64,000 nucleotides of DNA from a virus: positions 12,475 through 76,474 of IMG/VR virus record IMGVR_UViG_3300046028_006919. One strand, given 5' to 3'. Below, one piece after another: positions 28,869-62,754 of the stretch. Each line of letters opens with the position of its first letter. Position 1 is the first letter of the stretch. Below the pieces are notes generated by a model. That model saw nothing but the letters and a program-made list of their open reading frames with translations. It searched no databases and had not been told where the DNA came from. Position numbers and translations under genes: made by a program.

Positions 28869-28917
28869 AGATTTGGGTTTAAATGTTTATTTATTGGGCA
28901 AATATAATACTTATTTT

Positions 28918-29379
28918 TTATTCCCCAAAACTTTTTTTCAATATTTTTTTCATATCTCTATCTAAATCTTTTTCTTTTATAGCTATAGATTTGTCTCTCA
29001 CGTTTTTACCTTTGGCTAAACCCACAACAATTTTTATAAGACCTTTGTCGTTTAGAACTATATTCAACGGGATTATGGTAAGTCCCTTCTCACCAACTTT
29101 TTGTTGTAACCTTTCAATTTCAACTTTTTTAGCTAAAAGCTTTCTATCTCTATTGGTGTTGTGAACATAATTATTGATACCACCATTGTGTGGTGCCACA
29201 TACATTCCTTTTATAAACAACTCACCTTCTAAGATATAACAGTAAGCTTCACTAATCGATGTTCTAGAATCCTTTATTGGTCTTATTTCAGAGCCATGTA
29301 GTTGAACACCACACGATAATGTGTCTAATATTTGGTATTCGTAATAAGCTTTACGATTTGAAATTAAAATTTTATCCAT
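28918..29379 (-). CDS. smpB: SsrA-binding protein SmpB
   Basis: NRKAYYEY, GVQLHGSEI, RKLL and GLAKGK..RDK motifs. Confidence 0.93.
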   Translation of the reverse strand: MDKILISNRKAYYEYQILDTLSCGVQLHGSEIRPIKDSRTSISEAYCYILEGELFIKGMYVAPHNGGINNYVHNTNRDRKLLAKKVEIERLQQKVGEKGLTIIPLNIVLNDKGLIKIVVGLAKGKNVRDKSIAIKEKDLDRDMKKILKKSFGE

Positions 29380-30095: not shown

Positions 30096-30158
30096 ACTTA
30101 GTAATTTTATACAAATATACTAAATAAAATAATAAAAAGCAAATTTTTTTAGTTTTTT

Positions 30159-30339: not shown

Positions 30340-31368
30340 TTAATTTTTTAATTTTATTAACCACTGTAGTTTGGCTTTTATGTTATATATGTTCAAATTA
30401 AAACTTTGTAACCATGTAATAACTCCTCTATATTTATATGCTAATTTTAATTTTCTAACAATACCCTTGTGTGATGTAGGTGACACCTTCATAATCCATG
30501 GCATCCAACTTATATCATCAGAAGCAACTATTGGAACTTTAGCTGTTACAAAATCTGCTGTTACTATATTAAAAGATTCAGAAAAAGAAACTTGCATACC
30601 AATATCCATTTTAGATGCCGCTTCTAAAAATTCAGCATGTTTATACCATCTATGTTCAACTAACTCGTGTTTAGAATGTTCAAATAATGCTTGAATATTT
30701 CTTAACGCGTTGTCACCAGATTGTTCAGTTCTTGTTCCGTTGATATGAAATCTTAATGTTTTATCTATTTGTTCAGCAAACTCTATCGCAGCCATTGCTT
30801 GTTGATATGTATTTTTCATTGGTCTAATAGCACCAAAAGAACCAATATCAACAAAGTCTTTGCTTTTCACATGTTTTTCAGGTGTGAATGGTTTCGCTTT
30901 ATAAATGTTGGGTAAAAAAATAAACTTGCCTTCTGGAAAACAATAAGTTAATTGTTCTGTAAGTTCAGTTGTGTTAGGTGCTATCTCAATTTTTAACTCA
31001 TTGATAGATGCGTATTGTTTTATCCATCTAGTTGCAATACCTTCGTTGGCCAAAAATGGTGCTTTTGAATGTAGTCTAACTACCCATCTTCTATCCTTAT
31101 GTCTTTGGATTTGAAATAATTCTTTGAACTTTGCTGGTGGAACCCAAATAGCTTCAATTACAACCACATCTGGGTTAAATTCAGTCACGACTTTATCAAT
31201 AGAATTTGAGTCAGGCACTGGAGTTATTTTAGCCTCAAAATCGTTTTCATTTAGATAATTAACAACAAAACTGGCAGAATTAAATAAGCCAGAAGTAACA
31301 CCGTAATAATCTTTTACCTTGTCACATGTTATAAATTGAATACGTTTTTTTGGGGTGATTTCTTTCAT
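30340..31368 (-). CDS. GT-B fold glycosyltransferase
   Basis: FGAIRPMKN and SFSESFNIVTAD (E-x7-E-like) motifs. Confidence 0.75.
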   Translation of the reverse strand: MKEITPKKRIQFITCDKVKDYYGVTSGLFNSASFVVNYLNENDFEAKITPVPDSNSIDKVVTEFNPDVVVIEAIWVPPAKFKELFQIQRHKDRRWVVRLHSKAPFLANEGIATRWIKQYASINELKIEIAPNTTELTEQLTYCFPEGKFIFLPNIYKAKPFTPEKHVKSKDFVDIGSFGAIRPMKNTYQQAMAAIEFAEQIDKTLRFHINGTRTEQSGDNALRNIQALFEHSKHELVEHRWYKHAEFLEAASKMDIGMQVSFSESFNIVTADFVTAKVPIVASDDISWMPWIMKVSPTSHKGIVRKLKLAYKYRGVITWLQSFNLNIYNIKAKLQWLIKLKN

Positions 31369-31434: not shown

Positions 31435-31553
31435 TGCCGAGGACTGGATTCGAACCAGCAATAGTACCATACTCACCAACTTTCGTTGACTTCAAGGATT
31501 CGAACCTCATCTCCCGTTTTCAGACGGGTGGTTTACCATTTCCCCACCTCGGC
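31435..31553 (-). ncRNA. chimeric tRNA-like RNA (Leu-type acceptor and D arm, two T-arms)
   Basis: GCCGAGG/CCTCGGC-A acceptor, TGGTAAA D-loop, CCCGT-CTGAAA-ACGGG hairpin, internal GAGG-TTCGAAT-CCTT and terminal GCTGG-TTCGAAT-CCAGT. Confidence 0.7.
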
Positions 31554-31723
31554 ATTTTGAGAGGAATAGACCCCTTCACCTCTCATTGATACACGTGTCA
31601 CCTAGCGTTTATCATGTCCACTCCAAGGCTGTATCTTCTGCCTTTCTAAGTATCTGTGCTGACTAACATTTCGTTTCTTAGAATATACCAAGCAAGTGGC
31701 AGAGCAGTTTATTAAACTGATTG

Positions 31724-31852
31724 TAGTCAGAACAGGATTCGAACCTGTAACTGTGGATTTCCAAGCAGGACCTCGCATGGGCTTTTTTCATTCCACACCC
31801 ACGATGAAGCTAGTACCTATCTTTTTGCGTCTACCAATTTCGCCACCTGACC
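31724..31852 (-). ncRNA. tRNA-shell RNA: Leu-type D arm, T arm and acceptor stem around an approximately 75-nt non-tRNA insert
   Basis: GGTCAGG-TG-GCGAAATTGGTAGACGC ... ACAGG-TTCGAAT-CCTGT-TCTGACT-A; no canonical anticodon arm. Confidence 0.75.
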
Positions 31853-32048
31853 TGAGAGGATTAGGTATGGCTCACCCCTCTATAACTGACGTCCTACCTT
31901 GACAGTCTTTGTTTTTGGTTAAGAATAGGGTTCACACCTAAAAAGAGACTCACGTTCTCGATAACCCTTAGATTACCACCACCTTTTGCGACTTGTTAAC
32001 CGATTTTGTTTTGCAAATATACTAACTTTTTAAATACAAAGCAAATTT

Positions 32049-58838: not shown

Positions 58839-58959
58839 ATAAGTTTATGCGTTTTTTAATCTACTAATGATTTCTTCGTTTTTCTTAATAACGGTGTTTC
58901 TTTTTACTTGATTACCTCTGTTTGCTTTAGGTTTCCCTATTTTTTTAGATTTTGACATT

Positions 58960-59430
58960 TTAAATTTTTTTTATCATTTTTTTATTTTTAACTGCAAATA
59001 CGAATTCATTAGGAAATCCAGCATCTTCACCATATATCGCATCACATTCGTTAAACGCATTAATAAACTTATTTACAGTTTCTTTAGGGAAAGCTAATGC
59101 AAACCTAGATAATGGTTCTTTATATTTTGATTCTATAGATTCCTCACCTATAACGAAAATACCTTGAATCTTATTATAGAAATTACCATTTATACCAGTT
59201 TTATCTTTATATAATTTGTTCCAATATTCTAGGTTTAATATTTTAGTGTTATCAGTATTGATTAAAAATTTATTTTCATAATCACCAAAATGTGAAGCAT
59301 ATTCTTTGTTAACAGCAAAATATTCTATTGGAGAATATTCTGAGTCATAGTCTTTATCCAAATATCTATACACTGTAACCAAACTTTCATGAATATTCAT
59401 GATTTTATTAATCATTTCTCTAATTTCCAT
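58960..59430 (-). CDS. hypothetical protein, possibly ADP-ribosyltransferase-like fold
   Basis: VYR...YFA...YA..FG...D...E pattern; weak. Confidence 0.45.
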   Translation of the reverse strand: MEIREMINKIMNIHESLVTVYRYLDKDYDSEYSPIEYFAVNKEYASHFGDYENKFLINTDNTKILNLEYWNKLYKDKTGINGNFYNKIQGIFVIGEESIESKYKEPLSRFALAFPKETVNKFINAFNECDAIYGEDAGFPNEFVFAVKNKKMIKKI

Positions 59431-62659: not shown

Positions 62660-62667
62660 CTTCTCAG

Positions 62668-62754
62668 TCTAAAGGGTGGGATTCGAACCCACGGTGTTAT
62701 CTCTAACTCTTGCGTCCAAGGCAAGCGAGTCTAGCCATCTGCTCTAACCTCTAG
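62668..62754 (-). tRNA. tRNA-Pro(TGG) with a long variable arm
   Basis: CTAGAGG/CCTTTAG-A; CTTGC-CTTGGAC-GCAAG; variable GTTA-GAGA-TAAC; GTGGG-TTCGAAT-CCCAC. Confidence 0.85.

Follow-up and report, generated by a model that had tools for sequence, protein, structure and literature searches.

The locus under study is a non-coding island within a 64-kb stretch of viral DNA (hereafter the window), which belongs to a 76-kb IMG/VR virus record rated 22% complete. Its central feature is a gene of 129 nt on the minus strand (31852..31724), the strand being set by the fact that the letters quoted in the initial annotation are the reverse complement of window positions 31724-31852. That annotation had described leucine-type 5′ and 3′ parts, here called the shell, enclosing a sequence other than an anticodon arm, and the description is confirmed. 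The 5′ strand of the acceptor stem, GGUCAGG (31846..31852), pairs with the 3′ strand UCUGACU (31725-31731), which together with the discriminator A at 31724 occupies 31724..31731 and is followed by a C at 31723; the helix has 7 bp, two of them G-U, and U8 is present. The D arm, GCG-AAAUUGGUAGA-CGC (31827..31843), is of the tRNA-Leu type with A14, A15, G18, and G19, and its exact string occurs in 55 viral loci. The place of the anticodon arm is taken by a cargo of 78 nt (31749..31826) with U48 at 31749, just before the T stem. The T arm, ACAGG-UUCGAAU-CCUGU (31732..31748), contains two pairs that change on both sides among homologs (AU/GC and CG/UA).

The leucine-type core kept in the element comprises a 3-bp D stem, A14, the A15-U48 pair, G18 and G19, the T loop UUCGAAU, and A73. 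Decoding by the element is excluded because the anticodon arm is missing. ARAGORN calls seven tRNAs in the window, none of them the element, and makes no call for it when introns are allowed; no Rfam family, tRNA included, matches the element at E ≤ 10. Its minimum free energy of −33.1 kcal/mol is ordinary (z −0.54, with 60 of 200 shuffles as stable or better), so that energy by itself proves nothing and the case beyond chance is made by recurrence in viral loci.

Upstream of the element, a promoter-like site, TTTG-N20-TATATTTG (32014..32045, minus strand), lies 162 nt from the 5′ end and is one of 34 matches to this motif in the window. The site places at 32007 the probable start of a leader of ~155 nt (31853..32007, minus strand) that ends exactly at the 5′ end of the element. 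This leader is 93% identical over 157 nt in loci L057, L090, and L091, in which it precedes a different tRNA-like gene, and ~75% identical across its first 90 nt in L092-L094; its fold is no better than that of shuffles. Downstream, a spacer of 170 nt (31554..31723, minus strand; no Rfam match at E ≤ 10) leads to a second odd tRNA-like gene of 119 nt (31435..31553, minus strand), whose anticodon loop reads CUGAAAA and whose variable region contains an insert of 49 nt bearing a second GGUUCGAAUCC hairpin. The second gene matches the Rfam tRNA family with this 49-nt insertion (43 bits, E 7e-07) and receives no ARAGORN call. Beyond it lies an ORF of 342 aa (30340..31368, minus strand) with 33 related viral loci and, in Pfam, sub-threshold glycosyltransferase matches only. 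The ORF is probably in one transcription unit with the element; the next promoter-like site on the minus strand past the element is at 30143, and the minus strand around the element has no detectable sigma-70-type promoters or intrinsic terminators.

Nearly all genes of the window are on the minus strand, the same as the element, and those nearby encode a sigma-70 factor, SmpB, two metallophosphoesterases, RNase R, an RNA-repair-type HAD protein, and IF3. The SmpB gene is 2.3 kb from the element, and a link between the two was rejected: the closest relative of the window, a complete 362-kb contig (locus L057, genome G005), has an ordinary tmRNA (63 bits) that accounts for SmpB, and the shell-bearing genomes G001-G003 are without SmpB. 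The tRNA cluster of the window (60.6-62.8 kb) is 29 kb away from the element, which sits outside it in a separate island with one other tRNA-like gene beside it, unlike most relatives in the family, which lie inside phage tRNA clusters. The same phage has a second shell copy with the acceptor UGUCAGG/CCUGAUA (G000:1282..1189), giving two copies in the 76-kb record. Blastn of this region of the window returned no match among 50,697 phage records, and no cultured phage was found with either the region or the shell.

The runs that hold the window are lake-water metagenomes, and the 22 runs listed all consist of DNA contigs from lake-water or other metagenomes. The motif TTTG-N17-21-TAnnTTTG, which we take to be the Bacteroidota-type promoter consensus, occurs 34 times in the window compared with 5.3 ± 2.0 times in 100 shuffles, none of which reaches 34, and 29 of the 34 sites are on the minus (coding) strand. 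The excess of this motif and the lake-water origin of the runs together suggest that the host of the phage is probably a freshwater member of the Bacteroidota.

A phage family of shells with unrelated inserts

Relatives of the element were sought among 2.9 million viral contigs as exact matches to its D arm and T loop with a gap of 20-49, 50-80, or 81-110 nt between them. The three classes contain 10 loci (with actual gaps of 43-48 nt), 30 loci, and 15 loci, respectively, and the normal spacing of tRNA-Leu (34-38 nt) is seen in none of these 55. Joined by the window element, they amount to 42 distinct elements whose inserts are unrelated. The 21-nt 3′ shell alone is present in at least 136 viral loci and at least 160 copies; AGTCAGG lies ≤190 nt upstream in 137 of the 160 copies listed, yielding at least 133 distinct elements of 54-182 nt. 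Constant flanks around variable inserts, the pattern that the initial annotation proposed to look for, are what is found across 195 distinct elements among the matches listed, drawn from viral and metagenome contigs, with unrelated inserts of about 20-146 nt. The window element has all of the features that define the family, namely the 7-bp acceptor stem, the leucine-type D arm, U48, the T arm GGUUCGAAUCC, a purine at 73 followed by C74, and an insert other than an anticodon arm. It differs from the commonest shell at two positions, which create G1-U72 and G7-U66 and are partly common to two other members. Not every member is intact: the 5′ strand of the acceptor is unpaired in L009, and L032 probably represents a chance join to the tRNA that follows.

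The shell is phage-specific. Among 185,579 prokaryote genomes, the 21-nt 3′ shell was found in 20 stretches, all of them on MAG contigs, with a Bacteroidota label on 9 of 18 contigs. Copies also form arrays, with 11 packed into 6 kb of G006 and 12 into 5 kb of G008, on a single strand throughout; these arrays are interleaved with full sets of ordinary tRNAs, among them normal tRNA-Leu genes whose acceptor stems are quite different. Small ORFs between the shells of two arrays match no informative Pfam family. Many contigs in four metagenome runs also join both shell halves around other sequence; read depth was left unused, as generic tRNA T arms with 80% likeness raise the apparent depth over the shell. 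The literature searched holds no description of the family, and this very large phage RNA family is apparently undescribed.

Conservation extends to parts of the shell that the search patterns do not fix. The U just before the T stem, a position left free by the search pattern, is present in 168 of the 195 elements among the matches listed, and the neighboring base is mixed. Among the 133 listed elements of the AGUCAGG type, the base at −1 is U in 112 (the ordinary tRNAs beside them have it in 24 of 35), the discriminator is A in 122, G in 10, and U in 1, and C74 is found in at least 125. Within the set anchored on the D arm, each acceptor position, read in a fixed register, is paired in 35-42 of the 42 elements, the unpaired cases including register shifts, the chance join of L032, and the unpaired 5′ strand of L009; both the acceptor and the T stem covary by compensating pairs in this set. 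Such comparisons indicate that the tRNA core of the shell is under selection at positions that the search patterns leave unfixed.

The near-identity of the AGUCAGG shell in most members is a separate matter. A role as scaffold does not explain it by itself because the processing enzymes need no fixed sequence, and it would instead reflect recombination together with common descent. Homogenization of T stems within genomes was considered and is not general: GUAGG/CCUAC stands beside ACAGG/CCUGU in 4 of 15 loci (L309, L311, L315, and L322), and one locus has GUAGG/CCUAC twice.

The cargo module and its exchange

The core of the window insert was recovered in 11 more contigs from one metagenome and one viral scan, giving 10 distinct variants. 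The copies have flanks that are unrelated to each other, and the same cargo is carried under six acceptors, all fully paired: GGUCAGG/UCUGACU, GGAGAGA/UCUCUCU, AGUCAGG/CCUGACU, AGUCGGG/CCUGACU, UCGGGUG/CACCCGA, and AACUAAG/CUUAGUU. It recurs inside shells of the commonest type, and three cargo copies are accompanied by a second insert in the D loop.

The 10 variants fit one structure. Helix P1, AAG/CUU (31821-31823 with 31763-31765, minus strand), and helix P2, of 4-6 bp (31816-31819 with 31766-31769, minus strand), fit all 10, as do P3, UCG/CGA, and P4, UGGGU/GCCCA (31797-31804 with 31773-31782, minus strand). An asymmetric internal loop of variable sequence separates P2 from P3, and a freely varying 2-nt bulge separates P3 from P4. 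The GTGGG/CCCAT stem noticed in the initial annotation is real and falls within P4, where it is kept in 10 of 10 homologs with one double change from U-A to C-G. The hairpin is closed by a 14-nt loop, GUGGAAUG(A/G)AAAAA (31783-31796, minus strand), whose first five bases, GUGGA (31792-31796), can pair with UCCAC (31753..31757, minus strand), the proposed pseudoknot strand just before the T arm. GUGGA and UCCAC are invariant in 10 of 10 homologs; because neither strand changes, covariation speaks neither for nor against the pseudoknot, which is a possible feature of the fold.

The alignment of the 10 homologs (A2) has 98.5% of its cells paired compared with 28-46% in slid controls, for a structure that was derived from these same 10 mutually related sequences, and 0 of 500 shuffles reach its score. 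Double-sided changes affect four pairs: P2 and P4 have one each, and the T stem has two. The comparison indicates that the module is conserved, structured, and under selection. The variability that was first attributed to the insert describes the family, in which inserts are unrelated, and does not describe the window's own insert, which is conserved and structured in its 10 variants. No reading frame is conserved in the insert, as an AUG-led frame is broken by a 1-nt indel in variants of the L304 type.

Other cargo groups, such as L048/L244 and L052/L273, have fully replaced stems and retained loops. Inserts as a class are slightly more stable than mononucleotide shuffles (mean z −0.75, with 35% below −1, n = 120), and their k-mers show a modest excess of GGTGG and AGGTA (z 4-6) that is inflated by related inserts.

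Comparison of related loci reveals how the modules move. A 560-nt stretch that takes in their copy of the window element is ~99% identical between L304 and L307; in the shell genes on either side the shells align and the inserts are unrelated, and homology stops after the last shell. The window and L057 are 93% identical across the leader, and the match breaks off exactly at the first base of the element, after which L057 has a different tRNA-like gene, an ORF with a weak match to GIY-YIG endonucleases, and a third tRNA-like gene. At the corresponding locus, L093 and L094 have a shell with the acceptor GGUUAGG/CCUAACC and another insert, and the shell is adjoined by an Rfam freshwater-1 match of 70.6 bits, just below the gathering score of 72. 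These joints indicate that modules are swapped between close relatives inside a shared shell.

Comparison with known RNAs

Several known classes of RNA were considered as an identity for the element and rejected. A canonical tRNA-Leu fails, as the structure of the insert, a long and irregular hairpin closed by 14 nt, is not a 5-bp stem with a 7-nt loop bearing a leucine anticodon. A tRNA with a group I intron fails on length (78 nt compared with ~200 nt or more), on the lack of any Rfam intron match, and on the lack of a deletion that would restore the anticodon arm. The element resembles tmRNA in having a tRNA-like acceptor and T-arm domain around a large non-tRNA insert with pseudoknots, the element's own being a proposed one, but it has a full D arm, a length of 129 nt and not ~350, U3-A70 in place of G3-U70, no conserved frame, and no Rfam match to tmRNA. 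The ends of the Y RNA YrlA close a Ro-binding stem and not an acceptor stem, whereas those of the element form an acceptor stem; no match to RF02553 was obtained, and a Ro/TROVE gene was found in 0 of 5 phage records. YrlA is itself described as an RNA that does not decode, has D and T arms resembling those of a tRNA, and is present in phages too (PMC4201824).

Phages are not without precedents. An RNA like rnaC of T4 fails as an identity for the element, the search against the 50,697 phage records having given no match, and still T4 offers a likeness, the closest classic one, in its species 1 RNA (rnaC), and with it species 2 RNA (rnaD), small stable phage RNAs that stand among tRNA genes where its tRNA cluster ends, with a homing endonuclease gene adjoining. 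The end of rnaC has a T arm, CCGGG-UUCGAAU-CCCGG, and an acceptor-like stem without an anticodon arm, like the element, and the RNA as a whole is weakly tRNA-like (Rfam tRNA-Sec, 17.5 bits, E 0.83). T4 has one copy each of rnaC and rnaD, with no shared shell and swapped modules, unlike the family described here. Phage non-decoding tRNA-like RNAs have been known since T4 species 1 RNA and are without an assigned function; none is known for rnaC or rnaD.

A match in design is man-made. Ponchon and Dardel reportedly engineered a tRNA scaffold in which the anticodon arm is swapped for a foreign structured RNA, the product being processed and stabilized like a tRNA. The element has the same design, but the family is natural, occurs in hundreds of versions, and is built on a leucine-type core. 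A tRNA-like fold can also serve its neighbors: in MALAT1-mascRNA and in the TMERs of murine gammaherpesvirus 68, it recruits RNase P or RNase Z and thereby defines the ends of an adjacent RNA. The useful RNA lies beside the tRNA-like part in those systems, whereas the conserved module lies inside it in the element; by analogy, release of an adjacent RNA may possibly apply to the conserved leader. Later work on the engineered tRNA scaffold is represented by PMC3753655.

Functional readings and their implications

At roughly even odds (a probability of about 0.5), the gene specifies a stable scaffold RNA that would be processed like a tRNA and would present a swappable structured module. The argument for this reading comes from the parts that are kept, which serve folding into the L shape, cutting by RNase P, 3′ maturation, and recognition by LeuRS. 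Transcription would start at the promoter-like site 162 nt upstream; host RNase P would cut the 5′ end, and the 3′ end would be matured by host enzymes through trimming and completion of the CCA, as happens with ordinary tRNAs. A gene for a CCA-adding enzyme was found in G005 alone among the phage records searched, and G005 is without a shell of the element's type. The 7-bp acceptor helix, the D arm with G18 and G19, U48, the T arm, and A73-C74 would be kept for folding and processing, and the anticodon arm is replaced by an irregular hairpin of 78 nt and four helices, the loop of which is able to pair with the strand before the T arm. The shell would confer stability and a common handle, and the module would be the working part, most likely binding a protein or a folded RNA and not acting as a long antisense. 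The analysis turned up no partner or target of the module. As one shell is present in many genes and phages, recombination within it would exchange modules between phages.

One alternative, an unlikely one, is a non-decoding leucine acceptor, in which the leucyl-RNA made by host LeuRS would be the active species, either as a donor of amino acids apart from normal decoding or as a tmRNA-like entrant into the ribosome; it is compatible with the scaffold reading. [quoted passage not shown] The element has every determinant listed in that paper together with a regular acceptor helix, and the family counts are in keeping with the same requirement (A73 in 122 and C74 in at least 125 of the 133 elements listed, U48 in 168 of the 195 listed). 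Nevertheless, G73 is present in 10 of the 133 elements listed and in 8 of 42 members, and the leucine-type D arm, as searched with a regular expression, is missing from 73 of the 153 listed elements anchored on the 3′ shell. A LeuRS gene was found in 0 of 5 phage records, and a donor function would leave the dozen different conserved modules per phage unexplained. The tmRNA-like form of the idea has further difficulties in the lack of G3-U70, the frame broken by the 1-nt indel of L304-type variants, and the ordinary tmRNA that explains SmpB. Charging of the element with leucine, as distinct from a function that depends on it, is possible from its sequence at somewhat below even odds, and the scaffold reading does not need it.

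Another explanation gives the insert no task at all: the tRNA-like top half would be a mere signal for cutting by RNase P and RNase Z that frees the leader, the spacer, and the downstream mRNA. A tRNA top half alone suffices as a substrate of both enzymes. The conserved leader ends exactly at the 5′ end of the element and does so in L057 before a different tRNA-like gene, and the L093/L094 locus alternates tRNA-like genes with the freshwater-1 match (70.6 bits, gathering score 72). Such a signal is nonetheless rather improbable, given an insert with compensatory changes that is found under six acceptor stems between unrelated flanks, and a 170-nt spacer (31554-31723) that has no homolog among the family loci compared. 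A cargo kept under different acceptors and between unrelated flanks implies that the unit conserved and moved is the element with its cargo and not its neighbors.

The initial annotation had proposed a natural tRNA scaffold with a variable antisense or guide cargo, and the first half of this proposal, the design of shell and cargo and the existence of a family, has held up better than the second. Pairing of single-stranded parts of the insert with host or phage RNA or DNA would suit the conservation of loops and linkers in sequence while the stems covary, and many inserts per phage would suit many targets. The longest complement of the insert in the 64-kb window, however, is 12 nt, where shuffles have a mode of 11 and a maximum of 16, and the inserts of the related phage G002 fall within the shuffle range against its own 170 kb in 7 of 7 cases, a comparison confined to phage DNA that would miss short seeds. 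Base pairing moreover takes up most of the insert, and the conserved loop supplies the proposed pseudoknot strand. With its conservation and structure in 10 variants, the cargo looks more like a folded module than a guide, and antisense action appears improbable.

Defense against host nucleases provides a further possibility, in which many copies of the top half would act as a decoy or sponge for enzymes that attack the T loops or 3′ tails of tRNAs. Defenses directed against tRNA top halves do exist, as prokaryotic Schlafen Cash cuts the UUC of the T loop (PMC13462974) and Cas12a3 cuts tRNA tails (PMC12851939). The top half is the part that is kept, copies number up to 12 per 5 kb, and fast turnover between close relatives would be typical of conflict loci. 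A decoy, though, needs no inserts that are conserved, structured, and diverse, and the 76-kb record has two shell copies only, the closest complete relative having no shell of this type; we regard the idea as decidedly improbable.

It is very improbable that the element is a decayed tRNA-Leu pseudogene or a selfish DNA repeat without a function at the RNA level. The broken acceptor stem of some members (L009), the mosaic joints formed by the shells, and the presence of homing-endonuclease genes at the same loci, such as the weak GIY-YIG match in L057, would fit decay or mobility, but the acceptor stem, the T stem, and the cargo helices covary, U48, U−1, and A73-C74 are conserved, and the same cargo is kept in at least 11 contigs. 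Least credible is a short intron whose removal would turn the element into a decoding tRNA-Leu, since the calls that ARAGORN makes with introns allowed for 146 of the 195 family members listed scatter over nearly all amino acids as well as stop, Sec, and Pyl with odd intron positions, no contiguous deletion of the 10-sequence structure yields a 5-bp stem with a 7-nt loop, and ordinary tRNA-Leu genes stand beside the shells in these phages; the null ARAGORN call for the window element, the lack of an Rfam intron match, and the conserved structure bear out the doubt about an intron expressed at the outset.

The scaffold reading can be extended to a bolder picture, tentative and on balance doubtful, in which freshwater Bacteroidota phages keep a shuffled library of RNA effectors that resembles an 'RNA integron'. 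A single, universal and leucine-chargeable tRNA shell would be at once the handle for processing and stability, the address tag for a partner, and the homology arm, and co-infecting phages would trade modules, perhaps aptamer-like binders or decoys of host factors, with up to a dozen per genome.

For annotation, 'tRNA' matches with insertions of 40-150 nt are to be expected from gene callers in phage tRNA clusters and should not be reported as tRNAs. A family with a fixed shell and hundreds of natural modules to compare makes the function of phage non-decoding tRNA-like RNAs tractable, and its members constitute natural, evolution-tested tRNA scaffolds for the expression of RNA. If the modules bind host factors, they would represent a new kind of phage accessory gene that is invisible to protein-centered annotation. 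Should the 'RNA integron' prove true, nature would have its own equivalent of the laboratory tRNA scaffold, and phage accessory genes would gain a new, RNA-based class.

Variation in the shell and at its locus

The shell family, in which phage tRNA-like genes share acceptor, D and T arms around differing inserts, includes members with more than one insertion. Copies of the main element's cargo are present in three doubly inserted shells on other contigs (L334 603-777, L336 621-776 and L338 604-777), each of which harbors a second insert of ∼30-55 nt within the D loop; therefore, two modules can share one shell. The phage of the window encodes a second member of the family beyond the window (minus strand, G000:C1:1189-1282 of its 76-kb record, equivalent to L332 1189-1282), with the acceptor UGUCAGG/CCUGAUA and a ∼43-nt insert made up of two hairpins. 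A 69-nt minus-strand gene in this record (G000:C1:8724-8792, L332 8724-8792) has normal acceptor, D, and T arms and an anticodon arm shrunk to a 4-bp stem and 4-nt loop (CACU-AACA-AGUG), and is a further non-decoding tRNA look-alike.

Next to the main element lies a 119-nt tRNA-like gene (31435-31553, minus strand) that scores 43 bits with the Rfam tRNA model and receives no call from ARAGORN. Its D loop is type-II-like, its anticodon loop reads CUGAAAA (GAA, Phe), and its variable region carries a 49-nt insertion in which a second GGUUCGAAUCC hairpin is found. At the corresponding locus in related phages (L093 3887-3949 and L094 3601-3663), a match to the freshwater-1 RNA (RF02979; 70.6 bits, E 3e-14), falling below the gathering score of 72, is flanked on both sides by oversized tRNA-like genes. 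In the closest relative, a plus-strand ORF of 215 aa (L057 1595-2242) with a weak, below cut-off match to SegE-type GIY-YIG proteins (E 0.007) sits amid the tRNA-like genes, a placement that resembles that of segB in the T4 tRNA cluster.

Leader and promoter-like sites

The main element is preceded, behind a promoter-like site, by a leader of ∼155 nt (31853-32007, minus strand; counterpart L057 981-1137) that displays 93% identity among the closest relatives. In every case the leader ends at the first base of the tRNA-like gene, while the gene itself varies by phage, and one leader hairpin shows compensating base changes (GGUAAUC..GGUUAUC versus GGAAAC..GGUUUCC). The leader may be a separate small RNA that is freed by RNase P.

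The motif TTTG-N17-21-TAnnTTTG, which we take to be the Bacteroidota-type promoter consensus, occurs 34 times across the whole window against 5.3 expected (for example, at 32014-32045, 30112-30143, and 28899-28929, all minus strand). Because of this excess, with 29 of the sites on the coding strand and most positioned immediately 5' of ORFs, the motif points to a Bacteroidota host and its sites appear to mark transcription units.

An atypical tRNA-Pro and trans-translation genes

The window also harbors an 88-nt tRNA-Pro(UGG) (62667-62754, minus strand) whose variable region, at ∼16 nt, is unusually long and whose Rfam tRNA score is just 32.6 bits. An SmpB gene is present at 28918-29379 (minus strand; Pfam E 3e-43). 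In the complete 362-kb relative (G005, region 58850-59227) there is, in addition, a canonical tmRNA that scores 63 bits; this phage lineage therefore has its own trans-translation pair.
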